Shown: positions 1 to 35,986 of the stretch, piece after piece | How positions within the stretch are numbered: position 1 is the stretch's first letter | Layout of the letters: each line of letters opens with the position of its first letter | Assembly (NCBI GenBank): GCA_038057845.1 | Contig: JBBUCK010000031.1 | Coordinates: 12,669 to 59,600 of the forward strand | From: Patescibacteria group bacterium | GTDB lineage: Bacteria > Patescibacteriota > Minisyncoccia > Phycocordibacterales > JAGLPS01 | Direction: 5' to 3' | Length of the DNA stretch: 46,932 nucleotides | Position numbers and translations under genes: made by a program | Notes under the pieces: model-generated | Told to the model about the DNA's origin: nothing | Seen by the model: only the letters and a program-made list of their open reading frames with translations | The model's database searches: none

Positions 1-53
1 GCATGCGCCTGAAGAGCGCGGGGTCGCCGGTTCAAATCCGGCTCTCGGCACCA
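1..53 (+). tRNA. 3' part of a type-II (long variable arm) tRNA, probably tRNA-Leu; the 5' part lies outside the window
   Basis: T-arm GCCGG-TTCAAAT-CCGGC, acceptor 3' strand TCTCGGC, discriminator A and an encoded CCA ending at 53. The upstream GCGCC..GAGCGC helix looks like a long variable arm. Confidence 0.65.
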
Positions 54-16025: not shown

Positions 16026-16073
16026 AAATTACAAGGTCGAACCTTAAATTACAAGGTCGAACCTTGTAATTTT
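16026..16073. repeat. tandem copies of the ACAAGGTCGAACCTTGT hairpin repeat
   Basis: AAATTACAAGGTCGAACCTT occurs twice in tandem (16026-16045 and 16046-16065). The second copy completes a hairpin with GTAATTT. The same element occurs three times at 33437-33540. Confidence 0.8.
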
Positions 16074-17461: not shown

Positions 17462-17517
17462 CTAAATAGCGCTTAATAACTAGACGGGGAAACTGTTAGA
17501 AAGCGCTTACTACTGAA

Positions 17518-18873
17518 ATGAAAAAATTATTAACAGGAATAACAGCTTTGGGATTAGCTATTGCGTTGATTCCTATGGTTTCCGCGTATGAGGCCCACGT
17601 CATCAATGTTACGGCGACGATTGATAACGCTTTGACGGCAAATGTCTATTCTCTTGACTTCGGAACCGTCTTCCCGCAGGAAAAATTCGACAAACAATTC
17701 ACTATTGGTATGTCAAATTCTTTCCAGGCGGACCAGACTTACGATGACATTGAGTATGTGCTACGTCAGAAGCCTAAATGTCAACTCAATGAAATAGGAA
17801 GCCAAGTCATTCCAGCACTTCCACAATTCGGGCAAGTTACAGAGGAAGAAAATATCTTCGTCTGTAAAGACGAAGTGAATTACGACTTGATGGCGTTTCT
17901 TTGCCCGTATCTTTCCAAAGCCGAAGTCACCACAGACGGCACAGCACCAAATGGAGAGAATGACATGAATGTTCCAGAGTCAGAGAGCGGACACCTTGGT
18001 CCGGTCTACTCATTCCACGGCCCCATTCTGGTGGCTTCTTCCGATGGCGAGCCCACTTGGGATCTTCAAGATACTCTCACTTGGCAACAATGGGGACGTC
18101 TTGCGAAATCTGACCAAGATACTTCAGACCAGTGGAACATTGATTTAAAAGTTCCCTGCTTTGGAAATCATTGCGCGCAGGATTGGGCGGACTTCTTTCT
18201 CGCAAATGGAGGAAGTCAGAACGGCCATACTGGGGATGATGCCGCAGATTACATCCAACCAATCGGAAATGAGCACCTACTCTTTGGATGTGACTTATGG
18301 GTTGAAGTCAAAGATTTGAGTTTTACTCCGGAGACGGCGACACTTACAGTTAATAAGATTCTTATTACCGATAATGGAGGAAATGAAACCGCAACAAATT
18401 TTCAATTGTTTGTTGACGCGACCGCTGTAAGTAATGGAGTAGCAAATGTGCTTGCTCCCGGAAGCTATGTAGTAACTGAAATCGGAGTATCCGGTTATCA
18501 GGCGACATTTAGTGGTGATTGTAATGCTGGCGGTCAAATCACACTCGTCGCTGGACAGAATAAGCAGTGTACCATCACAAACGACGATATCGCGCCTAAC
18601 GTTACTCTCATTAAGAGTGTAACTAACAATGGCACTCCCCCAGGGACGGCACCGCCTTTTCAGTTCACTCTTCGTGTAGATGGCAATGTTGTACCGCAAA
18701 ACACATCTGTCGCGGTGACCGCGAACTCTTCTCATTCCATCACGGAGGATCCTAAGGCGGGATATAGTTTTACCTCGATTACGGGGGCAAATTGCCCGAC
18801 AAACCTTGGCGATTTGTTTTCTCTCAATGAAGGTCAAGCTATCACGTGTACTATCACAAACGACGATAATTAA
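17518..18873 (+). CDS. secreted fibre-subunit candidate, paralogue B (451 aa), with two C-terminal prealbumin/Cna-B-like domains
   Basis: Signal peptide ..MVSAYEAHVINVTATIDNAL. Same conserved blocks as paralogue A. C-terminal repeats end in CTITNDD twice (..GYQATFSGDC..CTITNDD and ..GYSFTSITGANC..CTITNDDN). Confidence 0.85.
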   Translation: MKKLLTGITALGLAIALIPMVSAYEAHVINVTATIDNALTANVYSLDFGTVFPQEKFDKQFTIGMSNSFQADQTYDDIEYVLRQKPKCQLNEIGSQVIPALPQFGQVTEEENIFVCKDEVNYDLMAFLCPYLSKAEVTTDGTAPNGENDMNVPESESGHLGPVYSFHGPILVASSDGEPTWDLQDTLTWQQWGRLAKSDQDTSDQWNIDLKVPCFGNHCAQDWADFFLANGGSQNGHTGDDAADYIQPIGNEHLLFGCDLWVEVKDLSFTPETATLTVNKILITDNGGNETATNFQLFVDATAVSNGVANVLAPGSYVVTEIGVSGYQATFSGDCNAGGQITLVAGQNKQCTITNDDIAPNVTLIKSVTNNGTPPGTAPPFQFTLRVDGNVVPQNTSVAVTANSSHSITEDPKAGYSFTSITGANCPTNLGDLFSLNEGQAITCTITNDDN

Positions 18874-18963
18874 ACTCCTAGCTTAGATATTCATTGTTCA
18901 ATCTCTAGCTCAACTACTTGTGATAGATGGGCTAGGGTCTTGAGCAATTAATGAATTAAAAAT

Positions 18964-19422
18964 ATGAATGGAGAAATAAAAAATGTAATGCCGGAAGAGG
19001 CAAAAAGAGAAAAACTTTCTTTACGGCAAAAAATAATTCTTGCGATAGTGGCGTTTCCTCTTCTCTTTGTCTTCTACGTTTCGCTTGACGCGAATAAATA
19101 CAAAGCATACGTGCGGGTAGTTCCCGGCGAGGGAATTGTCGGTGTGAATCCAACGGATAAAGCGCTTGATTTCGGAGACCTTTCTCGCGGCGGGCGGGCG
19201 GTACGAAAGGTAGCTATTCAAAACGGCACATTTATACCCGTGCAGATTGTAGTTCTCAAATGGGGAAGTATTGCCGATTTAATGGATGTGAATAAGGATA
19301 ATTTTAAACTGAGCGCGGGGGAAAATGCCGAGATTGAGTTTACGACGTATGTTCCCGCGTCAGCGGAAATAGACAAGATTTATAACGGAAGAGTATATCT
19401 ATTCAAAATTCCACGTTTCTAA
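18964..19422 (+). CDS. membrane-anchored single Ig-like (PapD/ASH-like) domain protein
   Basis: TM helix IILAIVAFPLLFVFYV followed by ..KAYVRVVPGEG, which resembles the EAHVINV junction. ALDFGDLSRGG..VAIQN..FKLSAGENAEIEF is typical of beta-sandwich ASH/PapD-like domains. Confidence 0.7.
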   Translation: MNGEIKNVMPEEAKREKLSLRQKIILAIVAFPLLFVFYVSLDANKYKAYVRVVPGEGIVGVNPTDKALDFGDLSRGGRAVRKVAIQNGTFIPVQIVVLKWGSIADLMDVNKDNFKLSAGENAEIEFTTYVPASAEIDKIYNGRVYLFKIPRF

Positions 19423-19456
19423 AAGAGTCGAAAGTCAAAAGTAAAACCAAAGAAAA

Positions 19457-19906
19457 ATGAGAATGATAATCAAAACCGTTCTAAACATCGTAATCTACTT
19501 CGCGATTGTCGCAGGGCTTGTGTTTGGTCTGCCGCATCTTCTCACGAAGTGGCTTGGTACGGAATATCCGATGGCGGCGATTACTTCAGGCTCAATGTGG
19601 CCCGCGCTTCACACAGGGGACCTTGTTTTCGTGCAAGGCGTTGCCAAAGAAGATTTGAAGGTAGGGGATGTTATTGTTTTCAAAAACTCCGAGACGGGAG
19701 TGTTTACCATTCACCGAATTTTTTCAATGGGTGAAAAAACTCTGACGACCAAAGGAGACGCGAACTTTGACCCCGACAAACCGACACCGTATGAAAATGT
19801 TGTCGGGAGACAATTGATTCTTTGGGGAAAAAAGGTTCACATTCCAATGCTCGGAAGAATAACGATGTTTGCGCAAAATATCAGAATCAATGCGGGCCGT
19901 CCTTGA
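19457..19906 (+). CDS. ER/archaeal-type (S26B, SipW/Sec11-like) signal peptidase I
   Basis: N-terminal TM helix. Catalytic-Ser box ITSGSMWPALHTGD. GDVIVF. His box FTIHRI in place of the Lys box of P-type enzymes. TKGDANFDPD (GDxN box). Confidence 0.8.
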   Translation: MRMIIKTVLNIVIYFAIVAGLVFGLPHLLTKWLGTEYPMAAITSGSMWPALHTGDLVFVQGVAKEDLKVGDVIVFKNSETGVFTIHRIFSMGEKTLTTKGDANFDPDKPTPYENVVGRQLILWGKKVHIPMLGRITMFAQNIRINAGRP

Positions 19907-19934
19907 CGAGCCTGGCACAGTTTGACCAATTTTC

Positions 19935-21740
19935 ATGCGGGGAACTAATTACAAAAAAAGAATAGAAAAATGGAACAAGAACACTGAAGTGCGCAAATAT
20001 TCTTTCGCGAATGTTGATGGAATTTTCGATAAACTCCTGATTTCAAATTATGTCGTGGTGCGGGGAACGATATCAATTCCCTCTTCTGAATTTCCCAAAA
20101 AAGAAGAAAAGAAAAATGGAAAAAAGTTTTCTTTCACTTCCCTATTTCTTAAACGTAATTTTTATTTCGGCGCTCTCTCTTCACTGCTTATTCTTTTGAA
20201 TGTTATTGTTCCGCTTAGCGCTTTTGAAGCTCATATTTTGAATGTAACAGCCAGCATTAAACAGAGAACATGCACTGTGGCGACATTTGAAAATGACGCT
20301 TCCGGTCTTGCGATTTTGGCAGGGCAAATTCTTGATAACGAGTACAGCGATTGGGGATTGACGATTTCCGCGGATAATAACCACGCAGGCGTTCCAGACT
20401 TGGCAGTTGCTTTCAATAGCGACGCGCCAAGCGGCGGAGATACCGATTTAGGAACTCCCAACAGTGATTTTGGCGGCCCTGGGGTTGGAGCGGGCGGAGC
20501 GAATGGGGAACCGGGGGAAAATAACCGCCTTGAACATAACCTTCTTGTGATTGCGCAGGATAATGTGGACGGCAATGGCGACCTGCGCGTTGACGACCCT
20601 TCCGATGAGCCTGACGGCGGATGGGTTTGGTTTACTTTTGACGCGCCAACGCGGGTTGAAAGTTTGCGTTTGATTGATATTGAAACCTTGGGAGTAAAAA
20701 TTGATGTATATAACGCGGCGGATATTTTGGAGGAAACAATTAACGTTCCTTCCCTCGGAAATAATTCATCTCAATACATGGCGATTAACAAAGAAGGGGT
20801 GAAGAAAATCGGAGTGTGGCTAACGGGGGAAGGCGCGTTGGACAGCCTTTGTTTTGACCCGATTGAAAAGCCGCAGATATGCGATGCGCGGTCAAAAGGA
20901 TATTGGGCAAATCATGAAGGATGCTCAAACGGAAGCGGGGAAAGTCTCTGGATGAGTGAGGTCAATGTTTTGAGTGACAGTTTCTTCGATATTTTTGCCA
21001 CGTCAACGGGAGCGCAGATATGTAGCGCTTTGTGGACGCCGAATTGTCCATCGGGGAACACAATTCCCTCGCGACTGTGCAAAGCGAAAGGCCATCTGTT
21101 GGCTGATGAGTTGAATGTCGTTTCCGGCCGCCTTGTTCTCACTGCGCTTATCGCCGGAGCCTATGACGGCGATGAAGCTTTCAGCAATCTTTCACTCACG
21201 CCGTTTTCGACAGTGGGACAAGCACTCGGAATGATTGAAGCGATTTTGGCTGATTCCAATTCCACTAAAAAAATGATTAACGATGCCGGATATGTCGCGC
21301 AACGTATTTATGAATTTTATGAAAATGAAAATCCGTTCAGGCCGCAGTGCGTTTTTGATCCTGAAGACGTGCCGCAATGTCTCGCGCCGTTAAACGTCAA
21401 CATTGAAATTAACAATAACGAAGAAATTGTGAATATTGTGGAAACTTCCTCAAACACGGGCGGGAACAGCGCGGGCGGGGGAGAAATTGAGACGGGAAAT
21501 GCAAGTTCAACCTCGGAAGTGACTAATATCGTCAACGAAACAATAATTGATATTCCGGATAATGGCATTGGAACGACGACTCAAAATATTGTTACAGAAT
21601 CTTCGATAGTGTCGCTCCAAAATGAAGCCGGTGGAAACGCGCAGGAAGATATTGTTGCCGAAGAAGTTATTATTCCAGAAGAAGTTGTGGAAGAATCTCC
21701 GCAAGAAAACTCACAGGAAGTTTCGACGATTTCTGAATAG
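19935..21740 (+). CDS. secreted fibre-operon protein C (601 aa), Cys-rich, with a C-terminal N/G/T repeat and an acidic tail
   Basis: Hydrophobic segment ..LLNVIVPLSAFEAHILNVTASIKQ has the same junction as A and B. The C-terminus NIVETSSNTGGNSAGGGEIETGNASSTSEVTNIVNETI matches the repeat of the 29.6-33.4 kb genes. The start is uncertain because 75 aa precede the hydrophobic core; GTG codons at 20053-20058 are alternatives. Confidence 0.8.
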   Translation: MRGTNYKKRIEKWNKNTEVRKYSFANVDGIFDKLLISNYVVVRGTISIPSSEFPKKEEKKNGKKFSFTSLFLKRNFYFGALSSLLILLNVIVPLSAFEAHILNVTASIKQRTCTVATFENDASGLAILAGQILDNEYSDWGLTISADNNHAGVPDLAVAFNSDAPSGGDTDLGTPNSDFGGPGVGAGGANGEPGENNRLEHNLLVIAQDNVDGNGDLRVDDPSDEPDGGWVWFTFDAPTRVESLRLIDIETLGVKIDVYNAADILEETINVPSLGNNSSQYMAINKEGVKKIGVWLTGEGALDSLCFDPIEKPQICDARSKGYWANHEGCSNGSGESLWMSEVNVLSDSFFDIFATSTGAQICSALWTPNCPSGNTIPSRLCKAKGHLLADELNVVSGRLVLTALIAGAYDGDEAFSNLSLTPFSTVGQALGMIEAILADSNSTKKMINDAGYVAQRIYEFYENENPFRPQCVFDPEDVPQCLAPLNVNIEINNNEEIVNIVETSSNTGGNSAGGGEIETGNASSTSEVTNIVNETIIDIPDNGIGTTTQNIVTESSIVSLQNEAGGNAQEDIVAEEVIIPEEVVEESPQENSQEVSTISE

Positions 21741-23797: not shown

Positions 23798-23826
23798 ACA
23801 CAAAATATACCCACTTCGTTATTTTG

Positions 23827-23900
23827 TGGGCGATAGAGGACTCGAACCTCTGACCTCGTCAATGTCAATGACGCGCTCTAGCCACCTGAGCTAATCGCCC
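23827..23900 (-). tRNA. tRNA-Val (anticodon GAC)
   Basis: The reverse complement folds as a cloverleaf: GGGCGAT / GCTC..GAGC / CGTCA-TTGACAT-TGACG / AGAGG-TTCGAGT-CCTCT / ATCGCCC-A. Confidence 0.92.
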
Positions 23901-23975
23901 GAATGTATCAAAACATTACCGCAAAATTATATTTTGTGAAAGAGTAAAAAACTTCCCACGCACTTTAATTTGAGA

Positions 23976-24425
23976 TTAAAAGATTTTCTCTCCCGACGCC
24001 TTCCATCGTTTGAATAAATGCATTGCTGAAAAAATATAGATGATGCCGACGAGTACAAAGAGATAGTAATTTGAGGAAATAGACATACCAATGTTTGTTC
24101 CAATAAGACCAGTGATACCTAAATTAAATCCTGAAACAATGTTTACAAAAAATGCGACTGTATCCATTTGCGCCTTTCCGCCAAACAACATTTTATTATT
24201 TTGATTCCAACGGTAAAGGAGGTAACCAGAAACGATACCGGAAATTATCCAGGCGATTGTAAGAAGGGAACTGACAAGGCTATAAAAAATCAATGGAGTA
24301 ATCTTGAGAATTGGAGGATAGCCACCGATAAACAATGCTATTGATGCAATGATTAAACGCGCCTCTGACCACAAGAAACTATAACGTTCTAACATATGAG
24401 GTTTCAAATGTTCGTTTTGATTCAT
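23976..24425 (-). CDS. hypothetical 4-TM membrane protein
   Basis: 149-aa ORF with four hydrophobic helices. No family recognised. Confidence 0.6.
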   Translation of the reverse strand: MNQNEHLKPHMLERYSFLWSEARLIIASIALFIGGYPPILKITPLIFYSLVSSLLTIAWIISGIVSGYLLYRWNQNNKMLFGGKAQMDTVAFFVNIVSGFNLGITGLIGTNIGMSISSNYYLFVLVGIIYIFSAMHLFKRWKASGEKIF

Positions 24426-24520
24426 ATTGATAGGGTTATTTATAATTCAGTTTCAATATAGCACATGTATGTGTGGTGATATAATGGCACTGAGAAGTAT
24501 TACTCATTTATAATTTAGAT

Positions 24521-24679
24521 ATGAATAATTCAAGCAATGTAAATACGATTCTTTTAGTAGTAGTGTTGTTACTTCTTGTGGGCGGAGGAATCTGGTGGTA
24601 CCAGACATATGGCCCAGGAATGCCAGAGCCCGAATCATCAGGGCTACAGATAAATATTGGGGAAAAGAGTCAATATTAA
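24521..24679 (+). CDS. possible 52-aa single-pass membrane peptide
   Basis: Hand-translated: MNNSSNVNTILLVVVLLLLVGGGIWWYQTYGPGMPEPESSGLQINIGEKSQY. Below the track cutoff. Confidence 0.3.
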   Translation: MNNSSNVNTILLVVVLLLLVGGGIWWYQTYGPGMPEPESSGLQINIGEKSQY

Positions 24680-24692
24680 AAATTCGTAACTA

Positions 24693-24880
24693 GGGAATCG
24701 GTCACGGGTAATTTTCTGCTGAAAATTCTCGTATTTTTCTTGACACAGGAAATCGGCTATCCGTATTTTCTTGCTAGAAAATCGGACAGCCCGACCTCGC
24801 GCCTTCGGCGCGCGCCAGTTTTTTACTTACACCTGCCGAAGTTCTATTTTGTGACCCCACGGGGAATCGGTCACGCATAA
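24693..24880. repeat. decayed copies of the tRNA-Glu 3' end, each followed by an AT-rich hairpin
   Basis: TGACCCCACGGGGAATCG at 24852-24869 is identical to 25006-25023 inside tRNA-Glu. GGGAATCGGTCACG occurs at 24693-24706 and 24862-24875. GGAAATCGGCTATCCG lies near 24748. Hairpins include GTAATTTTC..GAAAATTCTCG, ATTTTCT..AGAAAAT and GCATAAAATTC..GAATTTTTACGC. Confidence 0.75.
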
Positions 24881-24963
24881 AATTCTGTTGAATTTTTACG
24901 CGACCCCGACTCGTCCGCCTAAAGCGGACTCCGTCCTTCGATTATCTCTCCTAGAGATTCATA

Positions 24964-25004
24964 TGCCAATACAAAACCCGCCACAAGGGCGGGATTGTAT
25001 CGGC
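24964..25004 (-). terminator. rho-independent terminator downstream of tRNA-Glu
   Basis: CCCGCC / GGCGGG stem within the longer inverted repeat GCCAATACAA..TTGTATCGGC. On the minus strand it is followed by TTTTGTATT. Confidence 0.7.
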
Positions 25005-25005
25005 A

Positions 25006-25077
25006 TGACCCCACGGGGAATCGAACCCCGATTACCGGCTTGAAAAGCCGATGTCCTAACCGTTAGACGATGGGGCC
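25006..25077 (-). tRNA. tRNA-Glu (anticodon UUC)
   Basis: Reverse complement GGCCCCATCGTCTAACGGTTAGGAC..TCGGC-TTTTCAA-GCCGG..CGGGG-TTCGATT-CCCCG-TGGGGTC-A. Confidence 0.92.
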
Positions 25078-25147
25078 GTCTAAGAAACGAATAAGATAAT
25101 ACCATTTTTTGAAAAAATGGCAAAAAATGTTATCGTTTCCTGATATT

Positions 25148-25237
25148 GGAGGGGTGGCTGAGTGGTTGAAGGCACCGGTTTCGAAAACCGGCATCCGGGA
25201 AACTGGATCGAGAGTTCAAATCTCTCCTCCTCCGCCA
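25148..25237 (+). tRNA. tRNA-Ser (anticodon CGA) with encoded CCA
   Basis: GGAGGGGTGGCTGAGTGGTTGAAGGC..CCGGT-TTCGAAA-ACCGG, long variable arm CATCCGGGAAACTGGATCG, GAGAG-TTCAAAT-CTCTC, then CTCCTCC-G-CCA. Confidence 0.92.
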
Positions 25238-27536: not shown

Positions 27537-29054
27537 ATGTGGGATTGTCTTTGGGACACACTGCTTTTACGTTTTTACATTATGAACAACCATCACCGCC
27601 TACTTGCGTTTCTAGTTCTCATACTTAATACCGTCTATCTGATTTGGTTATCTTTTCATGTAACGGGATTGATGGGAGTGATTTTTCTTTTTGCCGAACT
27701 TCTAATCGGGTCTTTGGCTCTCCTGTTTATTTTCAATCACTCTGAACAAGACCATGTCGTTCTCACGCAGACTCCTGCCCGTGGGTCGCTTGATATTTTT
27801 ATTCCAATTGTTGATGAGCCGCTCTCTTTATTTAAAGGAACTCTAGAAGCGGCGCTTGAAATTGATTATCAAAATAAGCGGGTCTATATTCTGGATGATG
27901 GGGCTAGAGAAGAAATCTCTAAATTGGCAAAAGGAGTTGGAGCTGTCTATCTTTCTCGAGGGCACCGCTTGCACAGTAAAGCGGGGAATCTCAATTTCGC
28001 TCTTAGCCAATCGCAAGGGGAGTACGTGCTCGTGCTAGACGCCGACCAAGTTCCCGACTCTCGTATCGCTTCTCATCTTCTTGGGCATTTCAGCGAAGAC
28101 CCGCGACTTGCGGTTATTGTAACAAGGCAAAGTTTCAATGTGCCAGAAGGGGACTTTAACCACGACCCTCTCTTTTACGAGCACATGCAGACGGGGAAGA
28201 ACGATAACAATGCCGCAGTTTCTTGCGGTTCAGGCGTATTTTACCGCCGAACGGCTCTCAATGAGGTTGGCGGATTTCAAACGTGGAATGTCGTGGAAGA
28301 CGTTTATACCACTTATGTATTGCATTCCAAAGGTTTTAGGAGTCTTTATGTTAATCAACCCTACTCTAGAGGTACCGCTCCGCAGGACCTTCCAACGATA
28401 TTTAAGCAACGCGGAACGTGGGCGCTTGATACGCTTCGTCTCTTTTTTCATCGCCTACTTATTTTTGGAAATAAACTTACCTTTCGCCAGTGGATTCACT
28501 ATTTTGAATTCGGATGGTGTTATATTACCTCTGCCATTGCTATTCCTATTCTTTCCATCTTTCCCGGTCTCGCTTTGATTACCGGAGATTATTTCATCAC
28601 CGAACCGGAGTCCTACGTGGTTTTGCGTTTGATATCGCTTCTTCCAACACTCTATTTTTATTATCTCCTCGGTGGTAGAAATTCCTCAAGCAGTCAGTTT
28701 TGGGCGGCTCTTTTCCCAGTCTATCTTAAAGCTTTGATTCTTTCTCTTTTTACCGGCAAACCTACGTATAAAGTGACAAAGAAATTTAATGACCCCAAGA
28801 GGAGTGATATTATTTTTATATTTCCGCATCTTTCACTCATCGTATTTAATGTCGGAGCGATTATTTTCCGAATAACTGTTTCGGATTTTGTATTCACGCC
28901 GTTTATTCTCATCAATTTGATTTGGGTAGCAACGCTTTTTTTCTGGTTTGCTCCGATTTTACGTAAAGGATTGTTCCTTGAAAGAGTTCCGGTTTCGCCC
29001 TTGACAGAGGAGAGTTTATATTTAGAATCGAAGTCGTCGGTCCTTAAGAACTAA
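27537..29054 (+). CDS. processive family-2 glycosyltransferase (cellulose/chitin/hyaluronan-synthase-like)
   Basis: D,D,D,QxxRW architecture: YILDDG, VLDADQVP, VVEDVYT, FKQRGTWALD. Two N-terminal and about five C-terminal TM helices. An alternative start is M16 at 27582. Confidence 0.85.
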   Translation: MWDCLWDTLLLRFYIMNNHHRLLAFLVLILNTVYLIWLSFHVTGLMGVIFLFAELLIGSLALLFIFNHSEQDHVVLTQTPARGSLDIFIPIVDEPLSLFKGTLEAALEIDYQNKRVYILDDGAREEISKLAKGVGAVYLSRGHRLHSKAGNLNFALSQSQGEYVLVLDADQVPDSRIASHLLGHFSEDPRLAVIVTRQSFNVPEGDFNHDPLFYEHMQTGKNDNNAAVSCGSGVFYRRTALNEVGGFQTWNVVEDVYTTYVLHSKGFRSLYVNQPYSRGTAPQDLPTIFKQRGTWALDTLRLFFHRLLIFGNKLTFRQWIHYFEFGWCYITSAIAIPILSIFPGLALITGDYFITEPESYVVLRLISLLPTLYFYYLLGGRNSSSSQFWAALFPVYLKALILSLFTGKPTYKVTKKFNDPKRSDIIFIFPHLSLIVFNVGAIIFRITVSDFVFTPFILINLIWVATLFFWFAPILRKGLFLERVPVSPLTEESLYLESKSSVLKN

Positions 29055-29065
29055 AAAACCTCGAA

Positions 29066-29134
29066 AGGGGCACTCAATCTCTGGCCTGTAAAGGCCAGTT
29101 TCCTCGGTTGAGAGCCCCTTTTGGGGTTTTTGTT
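29066..29134 (+). terminator. compound rho-independent terminator after the GT2 gene
   Basis: AGGGGCACTCAA..TTGAGAGCCCCT outer stem enclosing a CTGGCC..GGCCAG hairpin, followed by a T-rich run. Confidence 0.7.
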
Positions 29135-29208: not shown

Positions 29209-29366
29209 TTGACGCTTCCACTTTCACTGCTATCATATAGTCATCATATAACAGTCTTGCAGAGGAAACCAAGACGGATGAGAGTGATGAACAAGGTTTC
29301 TTTTTTAATTTTCTGCGAGCATAAAAGAGCCACCAACGGCCGTTAGGTCTTTTAGGTGGCTTTTTT
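29209..29366 (+). ncRNA. orphan promoter-to-terminator unit (candidate sRNA or attenuator of about 125 nt)
   Basis: TTGACG (29209-29214), 16-nt spacer, TGcTATCAT extended -10 (29228-29236). Hairpin GTCTTG..CAAGAC (29254-29275). GAAACC..GGTTTC plus T6 (29265-29306). Second terminator AGCCACC..GGTGGCT plus T6 (29328-29366). The only ORF here (62 aa) looks non-coding. Confidence 0.3.
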
Positions 29367-29579: not shown

Positions 29580-30227
29580 ATGAAAAAATTTATAGCAGGT
29601 GTGACAGTATTCGCTCTTATTGCCGTTGCTTCACCCGCTTTTGCACACGAGGACTGGTGGAATAACAGCGACATCAATGTCAATGTTAACAATGGTGCCT
29701 ACGTCAACAATGACGTTGATACCACGGCTTCAACAGGCGGCAATAATGCCAATGGCGGAAGTGCTGGAAACAACACTACCGGCGGAAATGTCAGCAACTC
29801 TGACCACGGCAACTCTGCTGGAAACACTTCAAACGCTAACGGAGGAAACGGCGGTGGAATTTCAACCGGCGATGCTGTTGCTACTTCACTTGTAGGCAAT
29901 GGTGTCAACTTTAACGATGTAGATGTTGAGGTTGGCTGTGGTTGTGAGAACGACGTTGATGATATCAATGTCAATCTCAACAATGGCGCCAATGTGGAGA
30001 ACTACGTTGACACAAAGGCCAAAACTGGCAAAAACAACGCCAATGGCGGAAGTGCTGGAAACAACACTACCGGCGGAAATGTCAGCAACTCTAACGACCA
30101 CAACACTGCTGGAAACACTTCAAACGCTAACGCTGGAAGTGGCGGTGGTATCAGGACTGGTGGAGCAGATTCCTATAGCGAAGTGGTAAACGTTGTTAAC
30201 TCAAACATCGTTCGCATTCGACGCTAA
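29580..30227 (+). CDS. secreted N/G-rich repeat protein (215 aa, two 97-aa tandem units)
   Basis: Signal peptide ..ASPAFA/HEDWW. The unit DINVN.NNGA.V.N.VDT.A.TG.NNANGGSAGNNTTGGNVSNS...AGNTSNAN.G.GGGI.TG occurs twice. Confidence 0.85.
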   Translation: MKKFIAGVTVFALIAVASPAFAHEDWWNNSDINVNVNNGAYVNNDVDTTASTGGNNANGGSAGNNTTGGNVSNSDHGNSAGNTSNANGGNGGGISTGDAVATSLVGNGVNFNDVDVEVGCGCENDVDDINVNLNNGANVENYVDTKAKTGKNNANGGSAGNNTTGGNVSNSNDHNTAGNTSNANAGSGGGIRTGGADSYSEVVNVVNSNIVRIRR

Positions 30228-30343
30228 ACCATGAAAGGAGGAATATTCTGCCTTCCGCCAACTGGCGGAAGGGACTTTCCTCCCTTCTGGCAAGGTTTTA
30301 ACCTAGGTTGAAACCTTGCCACGAAGGGTTCTTTCATAATTAT

Positions 30344-30790
30344 ATGAAACGTGTATCAATCATCTTTCTTACTCTTTTTTCTCTCGCTTTGCCCGTGACG
30401 GCATACGTTGAGGTTGAAAACAATGTTAGGGCGACTGTTAATACGGGAGGCAATTCGGCAAGCGCGGGAAATCAAAGTTCAGGCGGAACAGTCGTTACTT
30501 CTGAAGCGACAGCAACAGTCAAAGTAAAAACCACTGTCGGAGGCGTTGTTGTCGAAGATATTAATGAAACGTATAAAAGTAGCGCGCCGCTTGAGGTTAA
30601 AAAAACGAGTTTGTATGCGACAACAAGCGCGGAAGTTAAAACTCGCGTTTCCGTAAAAGCGCAAGCCACAAGTTCAAACGCGACATCTTCTCAAGAACAA
30701 GTGAAAAAAGCAGTTCAGGAAAGGAAATACCACTTTCTTTCACGAATCAAACAATTATTTAAAAATGTTTTTTCCCGATTTACATTTTAA
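30344..30790 (+). CDS. small secreted protein with one N/G/T repeat unit
   Basis: The ATG at 30344 gives MKRVSIIFLTLFSLALPVTAYVEVENNVRATVNTGGNSASAGNQSSGGTVVTSEATATVKV. The track start at 30308 is TTG. Confidence 0.7.
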   Translation: MKRVSIIFLTLFSLALPVTAYVEVENNVRATVNTGGNSASAGNQSSGGTVVTSEATATVKVKTTVGGVVVEDINETYKSSAPLEVKKTSLYATTSAEVKTRVSVKAQATSSNATSSQEQVKKAVQERKYHFLSRIKQLFKNVFSRFTF

Positions 30791-33371
30791 TACCAGAAAT
30801 ATAATAGGCCGTATTTTATCGGCGGCTTTTGTCTTTTCGCTTGTTTTTCAACCGCTCCTTCTTCTCGCCGAAGAGTCCCAAACGCCAACATCCGAAGTAC
30901 AAACCGGGGATGGAGGGGTTGTTGTTACCGGAGACGCGGTGGCGCTTACGGATGCGGGGTCTACCGTCAATACCAATGAAGTGAATCAAGCAGGAACGGA
31001 GACTCCCGAAACGCAAAATAATACTGAAAATACGGCAGAGTCTTCTTCTCTTAACACCAATTTGACAAACGAGGCGACTGTTGAAAATACCGCGACAACT
31101 AGCGCGACAACAGGAGAAAACACCGCTACGGGAGATAATGGCGCCATTATCACCGGGGACGCATACGCCGGGGCGAACGTTTTTAACCTCGTTAATACGA
31201 ATATCATTGATTCCTACACGCTTTTTTTCCTTCTCAATTATTTCTTCGGGCTTGAAGGCAATATTGATTTACGAGATTTTCAAAACGCTTCCACGTCGCC
31301 TTCTTTTCCATCCTGCGGAAACGGGGAATGTCTCGCGACCTCGGGGTCTTCTTCCGAAATATCCGCGCAAAACACCGCATCCATTTCAAACACTCTTGTT
31401 GTGCGCGCGAACACGGGAGAAAATGAAACCGGTGAAGACGGACTTATCGCAACGGGAAACGCATACGCGGGCGCGAATGTCATAAACGTCGCGAATACGA
31501 ATATAGTCAACTCAAACTATCTTCTCTTTACGTTGAATAATTTTGGCGGTTGGGGGGGCGACCTTGTTTTACCAAACGGCGATTTTTTCACAAACTTTTT
31601 CTTTCGTGGCAATGGTTCAACACCCGCTAACACCGACATTTCCATCGATAATTCAGCCTCGATTGAAAATAACGTTTCCACGGATGCCAACACGGGAAAT
31701 AACGAAGCGGAGGGAGGCCTTATAGTAACGGGAGACGCTTCGTCCGGCGCAAACGTATTCAATCAAGTGAATTCAAATCTTTTCGGCGGGAGCAAATTGC
31801 ATATTCTCGTTCGTATTCATGGCAATTGGCTCGGTAATGTCTTCAATGCTCCGCCGGGAGTTTCTTGGAGAGAAACGGCGACCGGAGTTGAACTATTCGG
31901 ACTTCCCGAGGAGAACGGAACGGATTCTTCTTTTAGCCCACTTTCCAATTTTAAGCTCAACGCGCAAAACACCGCATCCATTTCAAACAATGTGGGGGTC
32001 TACGCATTGACTGGAGATAACAAAACATCCGGCGGTGAGACATACACGGGCAACGCCTACGCGGCGGCAAACATCATCAACGTTGCAAACAGCAATGTAA
32101 TTGGACAAAACTGGATTCTTGCCATTTTAAACATTTTCGGGGACTGGTCCGGAAACGTCTCCTTTGGTCAGCCGGACCTCTGGATTGGGACGCAAGTTAC
32201 GGTTCCCGAAAAAAACTTTTTCGGGGTGGGGGAGACCGTGCGTTATAATTACACTATTGCAAACCGAGGCGATGCCACCGCCTCCGGGGTAACTATTCAA
32301 AACACCTTTGACAGAAAAGAATTTATGGCTTTTGAAAACGGGTACAATTTTCAAAATCCTGACACCGGACAGACCTCTTGGAATATTCCCGATATTCCTG
32401 CGGGCGGAATTGTAAGAGTTTCCTATAACGCGCGCGTCCTCGGAGTTCCATTCAAAGACACTTCTATTACAAGTAATGTCGTCGTATCAAGCACGGAAAC
32501 GGATGCCGACGTGAAAGACAATAGGGAAAAAATCACAATTACTGCTCATGATTACGTTCCCGGCTGGAATGGAGTGAAAGTTACGCTTACTCCTGACCCA
32601 AAGCTTATCGTCACAAAAACAAACGATGTCTTCTTTCCCACTGCTGGAACAACAACAGCGAACTATCGGATTTTTATAAAAAATAAAGGGGGTATTGCTC
32701 ATCATGCTGTTCTCGTTGATACACTCAAGAATGAAGCAGGTGATATTTTAAAAGAACAAGAATGGGAGTTGGGAGATGTCTATCCTAATGAGGAAATTGA
32801 GGTAACGTATACTTCGATTTTCAGTGGAAAAACGCCACCGGGTGTTTATACGAACGAAGCGCAGGTAAAAGCCGTTGGCCGTCACCCATCGCTTACGGCT
32901 TTTTATGGATACGTAGCGGATTCAAACATAGCGACAAGTTCTATAACGATAATTCCACCCTACCCATGGGCTTCCGAAATTACTGAAGCTCCCGAAAAAG
33001 TTGCCACAACCACACCTTCAACGGTAACTTCTTCAACTGGACGGTTTATTAACCCAGAACCTTCTTCAGAGATAATAAGCAATCCCGTTATTTCCGAAAT
33101 GCCGCCGTATATTCCGTTCTCACCCCTTCTTTCAAAAGTGCTCGCGTTTAGAGATTCGGTTGAAAGTACACACACTGGCGGTGGGCAAGCCCGCCTGCCA
33201 TCGCCTGCGGCTCAGGCTGCTGGCGGGCAGGGGGCTTCCGCTTTCTCTGCCCTAGGCTTACCTTCCGAAACAAAAGACTTCTTTCTTCTTTTAGTTGCCC
33301 TCTTTCTTTCCTTTATTATTTCAAATCTTCTTTCCCGCACTCGATTGCGAAACGCCTTCACTAGCTTCTAG
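30765..33371 (+). CDS. large secreted repeat protein (868 aa): four N/G/T repeat modules, two DUF11-like domains and a C-terminal anchor
   Basis: Four modules of the type NTASISN..V.A.TG.N...G...I.TGNAYAGANVINVANTNIV...L..LN.FG.W.G.. (about 31065-32175). DUF11-type segments (GETVRYNYTIANRGDATASGVTIQNTFD.., TTANYRIFIKNKGGIAHHAVLVDTL..). C-terminus LPSETKDFFLLLVALFLSFIISNLLSRTRLR. Confidence 0.88.
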   Translation: MFFPDLHFNTRNIIGRILSAAFVFSLVFQPLLLLAEESQTPTSEVQTGDGGVVVTGDAVALTDAGSTVNTNEVNQAGTETPETQNNTENTAESSSLNTNLTNEATVENTATTSATTGENTATGDNGAIITGDAYAGANVFNLVNTNIIDSYTLFFLLNYFFGLEGNIDLRDFQNASTSPSFPSCGNGECLATSGSSSEISAQNTASISNTLVVRANTGENETGEDGLIATGNAYAGANVINVANTNIVNSNYLLFTLNNFGGWGGDLVLPNGDFFTNFFFRGNGSTPANTDISIDNSASIENNVSTDANTGNNEAEGGLIVTGDASSGANVFNQVNSNLFGGSKLHILVRIHGNWLGNVFNAPPGVSWRETATGVELFGLPEENGTDSSFSPLSNFKLNAQNTASISNNVGVYALTGDNKTSGGETYTGNAYAAANIINVANSNVIGQNWILAILNIFGDWSGNVSFGQPDLWIGTQVTVPEKNFFGVGETVRYNYTIANRGDATASGVTIQNTFDRKEFMAFENGYNFQNPDTGQTSWNIPDIPAGGIVRVSYNARVLGVPFKDTSITSNVVVSSTETDADVKDNREKITITAHDYVPGWNGVKVTLTPDPKLIVTKTNDVFFPTAGTTTANYRIFIKNKGGIAHHAVLVDTLKNEAGDILKEQEWELGDVYPNEEIEVTYTSIFSGKTPPGVYTNEAQVKAVGRHPSLTAFYGYVADSNIATSSITIIPPYPWASEITEAPEKVATTTPSTVTSSTGRFINPEPSSEIISNPVISEMPPYIPFSPLLSKVLAFRDSVESTHTGGGQARLPSPAAQAAGGQGASAFSALGLPSETKDFFLLLVALFLSFIISNLLSRTRLRNAFTSF

Positions 33372-33436: not shown

Positions 33437-33540
33437 TAAAATACAAGGTCGAACCTTGTAAAATTAAGAAGCTTTTTGAAACATTAAAATACAAGGTCGA
33501 ACCTTGTAAAATAAAATACACAAGGTCGAACCTTGTAAAA
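33437..33540. repeat. three copies of the AAAATACAAGGTCGAACCTTGTAAAAT hairpin repeat
   Basis: Copies at about 33437-33463, 33486-33512 and 33514-33540. Stem TACAAGGT / ACCTTGTA with loop CGA. Same element as at 16026-16073. Confidence 0.85.
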
Positions 33541-33727: not shown

Positions 33728-34699
33728 TTATTTTGCCCGAAGATACAGATAGATGTCTTCAAGCGCACGCACCGCATCTCCGGCGGCAATGTTGTTTTGA
33801 TGATACAGTCCGTCGGTACAATCTCCCGCCGCCCAAATTCCCAATACGTTTGTTCGTTGTGTACGTGGGTCAACAATAATCTGATTGTATTTATTAAGTT
33901 CAACAATATCTTTTGCAAAACTTGTCGTGGGAATAAGTCCTATTTCAACGAAAATTCCTTCTGTAGGGAGTCCTATTTCTTTTCCCTCCTTTTCATAGAT
34001 GATTGCAGATACAAAATTGTCGCCTTTAATTTCTTTAAGAGTAACTTCCGTGAGTGCTTTCATATTCGGGTGAGCAAGAACTTTTTTAACTGTAATTGCA
34101 TCTGCCTTAAATAAGGCTGATGTTTCGAGAAGTGTGACACTTTTTGTGTATGCGAGTAGTTGTGCCGCACTTTCAAAGCCTGCATTGCCACCACCGACGA
34201 CGACGACATCTTTTTGAGAGAAAAGTGGTCCATCGCATGAAGCGCAGTATGTAACACCCTTGTTTTCAAACTCTACTGCTCCTGGAATAGTGAGTTTTCT
34301 GCGCTCGCTTCCGGTAGTAATCAAAACTGTTTGAGTTGTGTATGTGGTAGTATCTGTTGCAATTTCAAACCCATCTTCCCGCTCTAGGCTTTGCTTAAAG
34401 CGAGGCTCGCCAAAGGCGGCTTTTTTTGAAATTTTCGCAACATATTCTTCCGTGCGAATATCAACAAACTCTCCTGCGTACGCGCGAAGATGTTTTTCGA
34501 GCATAGAAGAAAAATCTGTTCCAGGAATTGATATTGTTCCAATCCAATTTTGAATATCTGGAGAAACGATACTTTGCCCGCCGAAATCTTTGGTAAGAAA
34601 AAGAGTTTTTAATTGCTTGCGAGCGGCATAAATTCCCGCCGCCACACCCGCCGGTCCACCGCCGATAATTGTAAGTTCATAATGCATAGTAGCAAACAT
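33728..34699 (-). CDS. trxB: thioredoxin-disulfide reductase
   Basis: IIGGGPAGVAAGIYAARK (FAD), redox CASCDG, VVGGGNAGFESA (NADPH) and AAGDCTDG. Confidence 0.92.
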   Translation of the reverse strand: MFATMHYELTIIGGGPAGVAAGIYAARKQLKTLFLTKDFGGQSIVSPDIQNWIGTISIPGTDFSSMLEKHLRAYAGEFVDIRTEEYVAKISKKAAFGEPRFKQSLEREDGFEIATDTTTYTTQTVLITTGSERRKLTIPGAVEFENKGVTYCASCDGPLFSQKDVVVVGGGNAGFESAAQLLAYTKSVTLLETSALFKADAITVKKVLAHPNMKALTEVTLKEIKGDNFVSAIIYEKEGKEIGLPTEGIFVEIGLIPTTSFAKDIVELNKYNQIIVDPRTQRTNVLGIWAAGDCTDGLYHQNNIAAGDAVRALEDIYLYLRAK

Positions 34700-34837
34700 T
34701 GTAACATGTTTTTGAGGCGGAAAATACCTTTCATATCGCCCAAAACCCCTTAAATTTCAACACAAAAGGATTAAAAATCAATATGTTCATTTTCTTGACT
34801 TTTCTGCTATGATGGAGGCACAAAACACATAAATTTT

Positions 34838-35986
34838 ATGCCCCAAGTTAAACCAGAAGTAGAAACATTTGCCCGAATTAAGGTTGTAGGAGTTGGCGGA
34901 TCAGGGAAAAATGCTGTTAATCACATGATCAATTCCCAAGTAAAAGGAGTTGAATTTATTGCTATTAATACCGATGCGCAAGACCTTCACCATTCTCTTG
35001 CTAAAAAGAAGATTCAAATTGGTAAAAATGTTACCCGAGGACTAGGAGCTGGTATGAATCCTGACCTTGGAAAAAGAGCCGTTGAGGAAACTAAGGAAGA
35101 AATTCAAGAATCGCTCAAGGGCGCTGATATGGTATTCGTTACATGTGGTTTTGGTGGAGGGACTGCTTCTGCCGCCGCGGAGCCTGTTGTGACAATGGCA
35201 AAAGAACTCGGAGCGCTTACTGTCGCTGTTGTGACCAAGCCGTTTTTCTTTGAAGGTCAACAGCGTATGCGTATTGCCGAGCAAGCGCTTGATGGAGTAC
35301 GAAAAGTTGTTGATGCGATTATTGTTGTCCCAAATGACAGACTCTTGAATGTCATCAGCAAAGAAACAAGTGCTCGGGACGCATTCGCAATGTCCGATGA
35401 AGTATTGAAACAGGCTGTTGAGGGAATTTCCGATTTGATTACAACACCCGGAATGATTAACATCGACTTTGCGGATGTTCGTTCAATCATGCAGGATGCA
35501 GGTTCCGCTCTTATGGGTATTGGAACTGCAAGTGGAGAAAATCGTGCAGTTGAAGCTGCAAAAATGGCAATCAATTCACCATTACTCGACCTTTCGATTG
35601 CTGGAGCAAAAGGCGTTCTATTCTCAATTGCTGGGGGAGACGATATGACAATGTATGAAATTCAAGAGGCGGCAAAAGTGATTACAGAATCTGTTGACCC
35701 TGATGCAAAAATTATTTTCGGAACAATCTACAGCGATAAATTAAAGAAAGGGGAAATCAAAATCACAGTTATTGCAACTGGATTTCCCGAGCCTGCTTCA
35801 AAGCGTGTAAGTCTTTTCCCTCCAATTATTGGTAAGGATAAAGAAAAAGAAGAAAAAGGAAAAATTTATAATACTCTTCCATCCGAAAATAAGACCGAAC
35901 AAAAAAAAGAACCAACTATCATTGAAGAAAATGAAGATGATTGGGGAGCGGTGCCAGCTTTTCTCCGAAGGTCAAAACTTAAATAA
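34838..35986 (+). CDS. ftsZ: cell division GTPase FtsZ
   Basis: GVGGSGKNAVNHM, NTDAQDL, GLGAGMNPDLG, GFGGGTASAAA and the C-terminal peptide DDWGAVPAFLRR. Confidence 0.95.
   Translation: MPQVKPEVETFARIKVVGVGGSGKNAVNHMINSQVKGVEFIAINTDAQDLHHSLAKKKIQIGKNVTRGLGAGMNPDLGKRAVEETKEEIQESLKGADMVFVTCGFGGGTASAAAEPVVTMAKELGALTVAVVTKPFFFEGQQRMRIAEQALDGVRKVVDAIIVVPNDRLLNVISKETSARDAFAMSDEVLKQAVEGISDLITTPGMINIDFADVRSIMQDAGSALMGIGTASGENRAVEAAKMAINSPLLDLSIAGAKGVLFSIAGGDDMTMYEIQEAAKVITESVDPDAKIIFGTIYSDKLKKGEIKITVIATGFPEPASKRVSLFPPIIGKDKEKEEKGKIYNTLPSENKTEQKKEPTIIEENEDDWGAVPAFLRRSKLK

Follow-up and report, generated by a model that had tools for sequence, protein, structure and literature searches.

Three adjoining genes on the forward strand of an ultrasmall uncultured Patescibacteria bacterium (p215, p148 and p868) form an operon that probably builds a cell-anchored surface structure. 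The predicted proteins share an Asn-, Gly-, Thr- and Ala-rich module of about 50 residues that comprises two strands of about 20 residues each and matched no entry in Pfam, NCBIfam or the PDB. It also occurs in p601, encoded elsewhere in the window (the whole stretch of 46,932 nucleotides that was analysed). Tentatively, the reading favoured here is that base and subunits form a surface assembly through homotypic pairing of modules, and this assembly may be a cross-β fibre that also displays adhesins.

Patescibacteria (CPR) account for a large share of bacterial diversity and live fixed to other cells or depend on them, and the Paceibacteria are among the largest uncultured bacterial lineages. 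To our knowledge, almost nothing is known of the surface structures of Patescibacteria, type IV pili excepted.

Layout of the Gene Cluster

The genes and their features are listed in Table 1. The promoter-like site upstream of p215, together with the terminator-like hairpin that precedes it, suggests that p215, p148 and p868 are a transcription unit of their own. The 3' end of p148 and the start of p868 share 26 nt. All three proteins carry ordinary Sec signal peptides, as expected from the original prediction that they are secreted, and these are unlike the AFEAH-type N-terminus of the SipW-operon proteins.

Table 1. Positions of genes, signals and protein features in the window.
Feature	Position (nt)	Strand	Details
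Module near p601 C-terminus	21399..21551	+	Single copy; aa 489-539; E = 6e-8 (HMM from p868 copies only)
Terminator-like hairpin	29109-29132		3' of upstream GT2 gene
Promoter-like site	29209..29236	+	5' of p215; TTGACG, 16 nt, TG-TATCAT; consensus match only
p215	29580..30227	+	ORF, 215 aa; signal peptide and two modules
p215 module 1	29670..29933	+	aa 31-118 including G/N-rich insert; AF2 strands 32-51, 99-117
p215 Cys-x-Cys	29937..29945	+	C120, C122, between the modules; invariant in 39-sequence alignment
p215 module 2	29961..30224	+	aa 128-215; AF2 strands 129-148, 196-214
p148	30344..30790	+	Small secreted protein, 148 aa; alternative TTG start at 30308
p148 divergent module	30407-30553	+	aa 22-70; hhalign profile-profile match
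p148 amphipathic C-terminal end	about 30728-30787	+	Conserved; family alignment
p868	30765..33371	+	ORF; signal peptide, 4.5 modules, two Ig-like domains, linker, TM helix
p868 N-terminal half module	30888..30989	+	aa 42-75, second strand only; E = 7e-4 to 0.018
p868 module 1 and hydrophobic tail	31053..31274	+	aa 97-170; E = 1e-18
p868 module 2 and hydrophobic tail	31353..31574	+	aa 197-270; HMM, AF2
p868 module 3 and hydrophobic tail	31635..31850	+	aa 291-362; HMM, AF2
p868 module 4 and hydrophobic tail	31953..32168	+	aa 397-468; HMM, AF2
p868 Ig-like stalk domains	32178..32951	+	aa 472-594 CLIPPER/DUF11; aa 614-729 second Ig-like
p868 linker, TM helix and basic tail	32967..33371	+	aa 735-830 P/S/T- and G/A-rich with one helix
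p868 C-terminal TM helix	33264-33335	+	aa 834-857 (AF2); basic tail behind

A Shared Module of an Unannotated Family

A profile HMM trained on the four full p868 copies only was run against a six-frame translation of the 47-kb window. The training copies matched it by construction (E about 1e-34 each). Besides these, it recovered the partial fifth copy in p868, the single copy in p601 and p215 (whole-protein E = 2e-7), and there were no matches in the window beyond these three proteins. Composition-preserving shuffles gave pairwise z-scores of 14-22 among the p868 modules and of 24 between the two p215 repeats, which are identical at 61 of 86 residues. The p148 copy was not significant with this HMM (E = 0.88) and was detected by profile-profile comparison, in which the p148 family aligned with a module profile built without p148 (hhalign probability 95.7%, E = 9e-9, 45 columns). 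Overall support amounts to z = 14-24 against shuffles and profile E-values of 1e-8 to 1e-18.

The central claim of the original prediction, that one module is common to the three cluster proteins and p601, is confirmed. Its counts held for p215 (two), p148 and p601 (one each) and required amendment for p868, which has four full copies and an N-terminal half (4.5) rather than four; the half module is also present in the L001 and L004 orthologues. The repeat unit measures 50-70 aa, with strands of about 20 aa by DSSP in the p215 and p868 models. Asn is conserved at equivalent positions in all modules (columns 6, 23, 43, 46 and 48), which would make Asn ladders if the modules stack. In the coevolution (DCA) analysis, pairs of non-adjacent modules gave as strong a signal for in-register stacking as adjacent pairs did, so the signal does not serve as contact evidence.

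The family comprises about 3,000 clusters at 50% identity (2,984), essentially all from Patescibacteria. Relatives of p868 are present in 224 GTDB species genomes, and the best 80 of these are all titled as Patescibacteria-type or unclassified bacterium. Either a match to a characterised family, or disordered or globular models, would have spoken against the original prediction; no known family matched, and the models are ordered and all-β with long strands. Pfam, NCBIfam and the PDB lack this large, lineage-restricted module family, which justifies a new domain family even on a conservative reading.

Architecture of the Proteins

The AF2 model of p868 (pLDDT 79.5 overall) has an N-terminal hydrophobic helix (aa 10-27) and then, in order, a long-strand all-β block, two Ig domains, a disordered linker and a TM helix. 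The modules are confidently modelled, with pLDDT above 90; in module 1 the strands span residues 96-115, 127-148 and 151-159 (pLDDT about 90). A hydrophobic tail had been reported behind each p868 copy, and the family consensus SNyll.lfNiFGdW.Gni.f confirms it. The number of modules varies little across the family (4-5), and each position has its own signature. The Ig domains have pLDDT above 90, and Foldseek matched this region to integrin calf/thigh domains, RbmA and WxLIP. Residues 486-592 match PF01345 with 41.2 bits against a Pfam cut-off of 24.6, and most p868 homologues carry PF01345 or PF24346. Within the linker region, residues 735-788 and 805-828 have pLDDT below 50.

On sequence and model, p868 is predicted to be the cell-anchored partner. 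The anchors alternate within its family, between a TM helix and, in some orthologues, a PF01471 peptidoglycan-binding domain; no LPXTG motif occurs in the C-termini of the family. The TM helix with its basic tail and the PF01471 variants are in line with the original proposal of p868 as the cell-bound component.

By comparison, p215 is the candidate free subunit. It matched nothing in Pfam or NCBIfam, and its 45 homologues are all from Patescibacteria. The AF2 monomer, of moderate confidence (pLDDT 69, pTM 0.47), contains four strands of about 20 aa. A G/N-rich insert, about 45 residues long and of variable length across the family, interrupts each module. The second module ends in a conserved C-terminus, N-x-V-N-x-N-[VI]-T-R-[VI]-R-R. 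The p868 family has a counterpart of the CxC motif, a conserved C-x4-C between modules 1 and 2 of its consensus. Every p868 module has hydrophobic buttress strands and p215 has none, so a conserved Ala/Val/Asn face would be left in p215 for a partner to satisfy.

The fourth module protein, p601, is the last gene product of a SipW-type operon, the peptidase of which was recognised by TIGR02228 (E = 7e-27). The C-terminal copy reported in p601 is present, with its position corrected from 21435-21570 to about 21399-21551. Ten of 65 p601 homologues carry the module (HMM without p601). The N-terminus A-[FY]-E-A-H-[VI]-[IL]-N-V-T is shared by p601, p311 and p451 and is absent from p215, p148 and p868.

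Conservation of the Operon and Cargo Fusions

Among related genomes with sufficient upstream sequence (61 loci), 59 have a p215-type ORF no more than 6 kb upstream of the p868 gene, and in 46 a p148-like ORF adjoins the p868 gene. Zambryskibacteria have the identical gene order and the overlap of genes 2 and 3. Furthermore, double modules of the p215 type occur inside the same gene clusters as C-terminal appendages of a VWA domain (L004, L024) and of an Ice_binding-like domain (L021), and in other genomes of PA14 domains. This is the pattern expected for a docking or co-assembly domain.

The surroundings of the cluster vary. Housekeeping genes (trxB, ftsZ and ftsA) surround it in several genomes, and a cellulose-synthase-like GT2 gene precedes it in the window and in L005. 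The proposed link to the SipW operon is real in some genomes, as in L032, where p451-SipW-p601 stands directly upstream of the module-protein cluster, and in the p601 homologues with a module; it is nevertheless confined to a minority: among 80 related loci, SipW-like genes occur within 10 kb in 8 and AFEAH-type ORFs in 2.

Proposed Assembly and Alternative Readings

The favoured assembly would be a three-component, Sec-secreted surface structure specific to Patescibacteria (class Paceibacteria). As its base, p868 would be fixed on the cell by the TM helix or, in some orthologues, by the peptidoglycan-binding domain. Its stalk would consist of the disordered linker (about 95 residues) and the pair of CLIPPER Ig-like domains, and at the tip the 4.5 modules would fold into one block in which a short pair of hydrophobic strands buttresses each of them. 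Onto this block p215, with two un-buttressed modules, would dock by homotypic β-strand pairing, and p215 may extend as a cross-β polymer, possibly stapled through CxC. With its single module and amphipathic C-terminus, the product of p148, which would be translationally coupled to p868, most likely serves as an adaptor, nucleator or cap. Double-module proteins with VWA, ice-binding-like or PA14 domains would join the assembly likewise and display adhesive cargo. The protein-protein contacts, the polymerisation and the cross-β nature of the polymer are what we infer from these features.

A bolder form of this model, which is speculative and unlikely to hold in full, is a functional cross-β surface fibre of an unrecognised class, without sequence kinship to curli, Fap, chaplins or TasA. 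Here p868 would be the template that nucleates CxC-cross-linked p215, adhesin variants (VWA, ice-binding-like) would sit at the tips, and Paceibacteria would rely on the fibre as their main organelle of host attachment. Two points weigh against the favoured assembly as well: the nearly fixed module number and the position signatures of p868 suit a defined domain no less than a template, and p215, on its model, could instead form a closed sandwich of two hairpins and never polymerise.

Docking and display without a fibre is a rather unlikely alternative that draws on the logic of WxL clusters. These clusters encode a domain-only small protein, larger proteins in which the domain follows host-binding cargo at the C-terminus, and a conserved Ig-like protein that ends in a TM helix (PMC10599100), a three-part arrangement that resembles p215, the cargo fusions and p868. 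On this account the module would be a retention domain, and p868 a receptor that binds p215 and the VWA, ice-binding-like and p601 cargo one-to-one. Cargo fusions do exist, the fixed module number of p868 suggests a defined receptor domain, and its Ig region matches the WxLIP structures 9i25 and 9i1y (Foldseek E about 1e-6). However, this similarity is generic to tandem Ig domains, integrins and transglutaminases scoring equally, and neither a WxL motif nor a Pfam match to WxL, DUF916 or DUF3324 is present in p215, p148 and p868. Moreover, unlike WxLIP, the anchored protein p868 itself bears 4.5 copies of the common module, a pointer to homotypic pairing instead of a receptor with its ligand, and a structural subunit is the easier explanation for a domain-only protein kept in 59 of 61 loci.

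It is improbable that the proteins are independent adhesins, in which the module would offer a flat Thr/Asn-rich β surface for a ligand (host polysaccharide or sheath, GT2 cellulose, mineral or ice) without mutual assembly. By sequence, the long strands turn Thr-, Asn- and Ser-rich faces outward, as do carbohydrate- or ice-binding β-solenoids, and both the upstream GT2 gene and the ice-binding-like fusion in L021 would suit such a role. However, GT2 is close by in just 4 of 80 loci, and the conservation of the operon, the translational coupling of p148 and p868 and the re-use of the module as a C-terminal appendage favour assembly. Least probable is a two-dimensional surface layer or canopy, tiled by the N-domains of stalked p868 with p215 and p148, that would make up the envelope layer observed on ultrasmall CPR cells: the wide distribution in Paceibacteria, in several genomes amid trxB, ftsZ and ftsA, suggests a core envelope function rather than an accessory one, and archaeal-type S-layer proteins likewise have a C-terminal TM anchor, a stalk and a distal β-rich domain, but sequence and structure searches found no similarity of p215, p148 or p868 to an S-layer family or structure, and VWA cargo suits an adhesive appendage better than a lattice.

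Should the base-plus-subunit assembly prove to be a fibre or a display scaffold, it would represent a new way, evolved independently, of building a surface polymer with neither an outer membrane nor a sortase, and a concrete target for the study of host attachment in Patescibacteria. The module family sits in a conserved operon with a clear layout of anchored base and free subunit, and the conservative reading still gives a testable three-protein complex.

Comparison with Known Surface Systems

The original prediction likened the proteins to curli and Fap, an analogy of composition. As far as sequence searches can tell, the module proteins belong to none of the curli, Fap, chaplin or TasA families. 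In hmmscan against Pfam-A (E up to 0.1), p215 gave no match, and p148 and p868 matched unrelated families only, with no Curlin_rpt; the Curlin repeat and chaplin models matched none of 39 p215-family members, and Peptidase_M73 (PF12389) none of p215, p148 and p868. Strands of 20 residues are also unlike those of known functional amyloids.

In common with curli, there are secreted, Asn/Gly-rich imperfect repeats with Asn conserved at equivalent positions, and paralogues with a common repeat of which one is cell-associated (the nucleator CsgB) and one free (the major subunit CsgA), so that a base-plus-subunit logic is applicable to both. However, the curli unit, a strand-turn-strand repeat of about 19-23 residues that stacks into a β-solenoid, has about 20 aa with strands of about 7 residues, compared with 50-70 aa and strands of about 20 aa here; the module proteins are from Patescibacteria and Gln is scarce in them. 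No csgEFG-type secretion or assembly genes were found among the scanned ORFs of the window or in related loci.

The Fap system likewise combines repeats separated by linkers of variable length with a conserved Cys motif, as in FapC. Foldseek of the p215 model returned only two PDB entries, both FapC (9u4u and 9nqd), and these were not significant (E = 0.68 and 2.1; probability 0.01, TM 0.08-0.11), so that the p215 model showed no significant similarity to the FapC fibril fold. Sequence similarity and a FapF-like transporter are also lacking. With TasA/SipW fibres and archaeal bundling pili, the window shares a SipW-type peptidase, AFEAH-type proteins and a module in p601, whereas p215, p148 and p868 have ordinary signal peptides and SipW-type genes lie near about 10% of related loci.

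The stalk of p868 has a closer parallel in fibrillar adhesins, in which CLIPPER (DUF11) domains lie between the distal domain and the anchor, and many DUF11 domains lack the Lys-Asp-Asn isopeptide triad (PMC12617251). Two features identify p868 as a CLIPPER/DUF11-stalk protein, a PF01345 match above the gathering score and a signal peptide together with a surface anchor, and its CLIPPER and second Ig-like domains are flanked by a distal N-terminal domain on one side and the C-terminal anchor on the other. It differs in having only two stalk domains and in a distal block made of the module common to the co-operonic small proteins.

Chaplin membership was ruled out by the lack of a Pfam chaplin match and of LPXTG in p868-family C-termini. 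The chaplin domain is hydrophobic, compared with the Asn/Gly/Thr-rich module, and long chaplins are anchored by sortase, where p868 has a TM helix or a peptidoglycan-binding domain. In Streptomyces, the anchored long chaplins ChpA-C and the short secreted ChpD-H co-assemble on the surface. One domain is thus distributed, as here, between multi-copy anchored 'long' proteins and small secreted 'short' ones, and by this analogy chaplins would be the best functional counterpart of p868 versus p215 and p148.

Modules and their copies

Three neighbouring genes encode secreted proteins named here by their length in residues (p215, p148 and p868), all of which carry ordinary Sec signal peptides. They share with p601, the product of the last gene of the SipW-type operon upstream, a β-strand repeat of about 50 residues rich in Asn, Gly and Thr (the module). 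The four obvious p868 copies were used to build an HMM, which was searched against a six-frame translation of the whole window. Its four source copies were recovered by construction (E about 1e-34 each), together with a half module at residues 42-75 of p868, a module at residues 489-539 of p601 (E = 6e-8) and p215 (whole-protein E = 2e-7), with no matches beyond these three proteins. The p148 copy was not significant in this search (E = 0.88); the p148 family did align to a module profile that excluded p148 (hhalign probability 95.7%, E = 9e-9). Local alignment scores compared with composition-preserving shuffles gave z = 14-22 for the p868 modules among themselves and z = 24 for the two p215 repeats (71% protein and 72% DNA identity), thus the module is not a low-complexity artefact.

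The original prediction of a module shared by all four proteins is therefore borne out by the HMM, the shuffle z scores and, for p148, hhalign, as is that of a hydrophobic tail behind each p868 copy, which is kept family-wide. The predicted copies needed some revision: the four full copies in p868 are joined by the half copy, giving 4.5; both copies in p215 are present, but the family alignment reveals that each is interrupted by variable G/N-rich inserts; and the C-terminal copy in p601 was found with amended boundaries (Table). The consensus of 360 unique copies is N-x-A-x-[IV]-x-N-x-V-x-V-x-A-x-T-G-x-N-x-A...G-x-I-x-T-G-[DN]-A-x-A-x-A-N-V-x-N-x-[VA]-N-T-N-I, extended in p868-type proteins by S-N-y-l-l-x-l-f-N-i-F-G-d-W-x-G-n-i-x-f.

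Distribution and genomic context

The module family is real, large, lineage-restricted and unannotated, and lies in a conserved three-gene surface operon. More than 200 homologues of the N-terminal half of p868 and 45 of p215 were found, almost all unnamed or "hypothetical" and from Patescibacteria. Against 1.84 billion representative proteins, the module profile matched 2,984 clusters with an E-value cut-off of 1e-3, of which 1,719 remained at 1e-10; the best 150 of the 2,984 are all p868-type with 4-6 modules, and ten clusters looked up were unnamed or labelled Parcubacteria. When one genome per GTDB species was searched with the p868 alignment, relatives were detected in 224 genomes. The best 80 of these are all labelled as Patescibacteria lineages (Paceibacterota, Zambryski-, Kaiser-, Taylor-, Yonath-, Giovannoni-, Nomura- and Adlerbacteria) or unclassified bacterium, and the closest is 80% identical. 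Three homologues (P0018, P0081 and P0135) bear non-CPR source names (Anaerolineales bacterium, Anaplasmataceae bacterium), which may result from misnaming or from faulty binning of the MAGs.

In the 61 loci whose upstream sequence extends for at least 2.5 kb, an ORF matching the p215 profile lies within 6 kb upstream of the p868 gene on the same strand in 59, and a p148-like ORF abuts the p868 gene in 46. A Zambryskibacteria locus (L001) encodes proteins of 210, 163 and 830 residues in the same order, with genes 2 and 3 overlapping, and a p148/p868 gene overlap of about 23-26 nt was found in several genomes. Given the hairpin after the upstream GT2 gene and the promoter-like site (Table), p215, p148 and p868 probably form one transcription unit. 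Directly downstream are trxB and ftsZ, and the p868 orthologue-trxB-ftsZ/ftsA neighbourhood is shared by Zambryskibacteria and other loci (L001, L006, L013, L030, L040).

Table. Positions of genes and sequence features in the window and in related loci (L numbers).
Feature	Sequence	Positions	Remarks
Truncated tRNA	Window	1-50	
Palindrome, 2 copies	Window	16030-16068	about 460 bp upstream of first SipW-operon gene
SipW-type operon	Window	16526-21740	p601 last gene
p601 module	Window	about 21399-21551	
tRNA cluster	Window	23826-25237	Val-GAC (-), Glu-TTC (-), Ser-CGA (+)
GT2 gene	Window	27537-29054	directly upstream of cluster
Terminator-like hairpin	Window	29109-29132	3' of GT2 gene; consensus match only
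Promoter-like site	Window	29209-29236	consensus match only
p215 ORF	Window	29580-30227	same strand as p148 and p868
p148 ORF	Window	30344-30790	same strand as p215 and p868
p148 C-terminal segment	Window	30728-30787	
p868 ORF	Window	30765-33371	26-nt overlap with p148
Palindrome, 3 copies	Window	33442-33537	between convergent p868 and trxB
trxB and ftsZ	Window	33728-35986	trxB (-), ftsZ (+)
Double-module proteins, 390-505 aa	L004	8759-11357	inside orthologous cluster
Double-module proteins, 390-505 aa	L021	5665-8542	inside orthologous cluster
Double-module proteins, 390-505 aa	L024	4641-7464	inside orthologous cluster

The proposed link to the SipW operon holds in part. In one locus (L032) p451-SipW-p601 stands directly upstream of the cluster, and one module occurs in 10 of 65 p601 homologues (HMM excluding p601), but SipW-like genes within 10 kb are limited to 8 of 80 related loci. 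An AFEAH-type ORF lies within that distance in 2 of the 80, and linkage to GT2 or cellulose was rejected, as a GT2 gene is near only four. The SipW, GT2 and AFEAH links are minority features.

Within the SipW-type operon, p311 and p451 have in common the N-terminal motif A-[FY]-E-A-H-V-I-N-V-T. SpaA_2/SpaA_4 domains, which are prealbumin-like (isopeptide-type), are found in p451, and an acidic double-disulfide repeat (NF033662) lies at the end of p311. The other products include a small membrane protein, p152, and the peptidase, an archaeal/SipW-type signal peptidase I (TIGR02228, E = 7e-27). In this CPR genome the operon resembles a TasA-type or archaeal-bundling-pilus-type system. A tRNA cluster separates its region from that of the GT2 gene and the three-gene cluster. 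The cellulose-synthase-like GT2 matches Pfam Glycos_transf_2 and Cellulose_synt as well as TIGR03030 CelA (E = 5e-61), the latter at a level far short of the equivalog cut-off, and a search of it revealed no PilZ domain; in L005 a similar GT2 and the p215 orthologue are divergently oriented. A/T runs flank the 19-bp palindrome TACAAGGTCGAACCTTGTA, which gives eight strand-matches against 0.03 expected. Its exact 17-nt core is absent from 84 of 85 related loci, and the palindrome is therefore genome-specific; it may serve as a tandem terminator, as a shared operator or as a REP-like element.

Protein architecture

The AlphaFold2 model of p868, made from an 88-sequence alignment, has a pLDDT of 79.5 overall and >90 across the modules. 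Each module is predicted to open with a 20-residue strand, followed by a second of similar span broken by two bulges; a third strand, hydrophobic and 9-10 residues long, and a short fourth one close it. C-terminal to the modules are two Ig-like domains, the first of which is Pfam CLIPPER/DUF11 (41.2 bits against a cut-off of 24.6), then a disordered P/S/T-rich and G/A-rich stretch (residues 735-830) and a C-terminal TM helix (834-857) with a basic tail. Since C-termini across the family consist either of such a helix or of a peptidoglycan-binding domain (PF01471), p868 is cell-anchored with the module block distal. A candidate sortase signal before the TM helix (LPSETKD) was rejected for lack of conservation across the family, and a conserved LPXTG is absent from p868-family C-termini.

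The p215 model, from 39 sequences, is of moderate confidence (pLDDT 69, pTM 0.47) and contains four strands of about 20 residues (32-51, 99-117, 129-148 and 196-214), with short strands predicted within the G/N inserts. The family alignment shows a conserved C-terminus, ...N-[VI]-T-R-[VI]-R-R, and, between the modules, a C-x-C whose two Cys never vary. The corresponding position in the p868 family, between modules 1 and 2, is occupied by a conserved C-x4-C, and p215 thus looks like the first two p868 modules minus the hydrophobic buttress. In p148 a signal peptide precedes a single divergent module, and the C-terminal end is conserved and amphipathic; in the p148 family this last segment is aromatic (F-K-x-Y-V-F-S-x-F) and may be a membrane-interface or partner-binding helix.

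Mean-field DCA was applied to 360 single modules and 694 adjacent-module pairs, using non-adjacent modules as the control. Single modules gave only weak antiparallel couplings between strands 1 and 2 (i+j about 52-55), which lend weak support to antiparallel pairing of the two long strands. Adjacent modules were enriched in same-position couplings, which could point to in-register stacking, and so was the control (mean diagonal z 1.79 vs 1.54); these couplings were therefore rejected as a sign of contact and are no evidence of stacking.

Cargo fusions and a proposed surface assembly

In several clusters the p215-type double module forms the C-terminal part of larger proteins (Table). A VWA domain precedes it in L004 and L024 (E = 6e-17 and 5e-9), the N-terminal parts in L021 include an Ice_binding-like domain (E = 4e-22) as well as a region that weakly matches PA14, and some double-module proteins of these loci have unannotated N-terminal domains. 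The module of p601 is likewise a C-terminal appendage, but a single one. The strongest pointer to a possible co-assembly or docking role of the module is this re-use on adhesion-type domains. In L004 an S8 peptidase lies directly downstream of the p868 orthologue.

A base-plus-subunit surface assembly of p868, p215 and p148 is the reading that we tentatively favour. p868 would present a folded 4.5-module block on its CLIPPER stalk, and the p215 modules, because they are without the hydrophobic buttress, would expose a conserved Ala/Val/Asn face and β edges. p215 could add onto the p868 block through homotypic strand pairing and propagate as a cross-β polymer in which disulfides between subunits would be possible through the CxC; double-module cargo proteins would join in the same way, and p148, translationally coupled to p868, would be an adaptor, nucleator or cap. 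The module could instead serve a non-polymeric docking system like the WxL cluster, to which the parallel cluster logic points (PMC10599100), and this we consider rather unlikely. Independent ligand-binding adhesins and a two-dimensional surface layer are both improbable explanations. The base-plus-subunit idea of the original prediction is reasonable and is now better backed by the anchor, stalk, operon and cargo evidence. The analysis establishes the homology, architecture, anchoring, operon conservation and cargo fusions; every contact and the polymerisation are ones that we infer.

Comparison with known systems

In Pfam-A and NCBIfam p215 matches no family, p148 none of relevance and p868 only DUF11/DUF7507, and none of the 39 p215-family members matches a real Pfam family. 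Module profiles (6- and 104-sequence alignments) gave only a chance xylanase match among PDB sequences (E = 0.25). Foldseek with the p215 model returned nothing from BFVD and, from the PDB, only FapC fibril structures at non-significant scores (E = 0.68 and 2.1, TM 0.08-0.11). Matches to the whole p868 model were dominated by its C-terminal Ig domains (integrin, RbmA, transglutaminase, WxLIP), so this result says nothing about the modelled module block. The family, profile and Foldseek searches led us to reject membership of curli, Fap, chaplin, TasA and WxL, and the predicted "curli/Fap-like amyloid" label for the three proteins stands as an analogy only.

No description of the module was found in the literature on SipW, amyloid or DUF11 in Patescibacteria. 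Kuroda et al. (2024; PMC10936435) describe, in three Paceibacteria, secreted proteins that are strongly expressed, contain peptidoglycan-binding domains and have similar predicted structures; these may be candidates for the p868 family, in which PF01471 is C-terminal in some members. The module operon would fit a known kind, in which a surface assembly is made of repeat proteins that are paralogous, some anchored and some free, and the logic of the WxL cluster is strikingly parallel to that of the p215-p148-p868 operon (PMC10599100).
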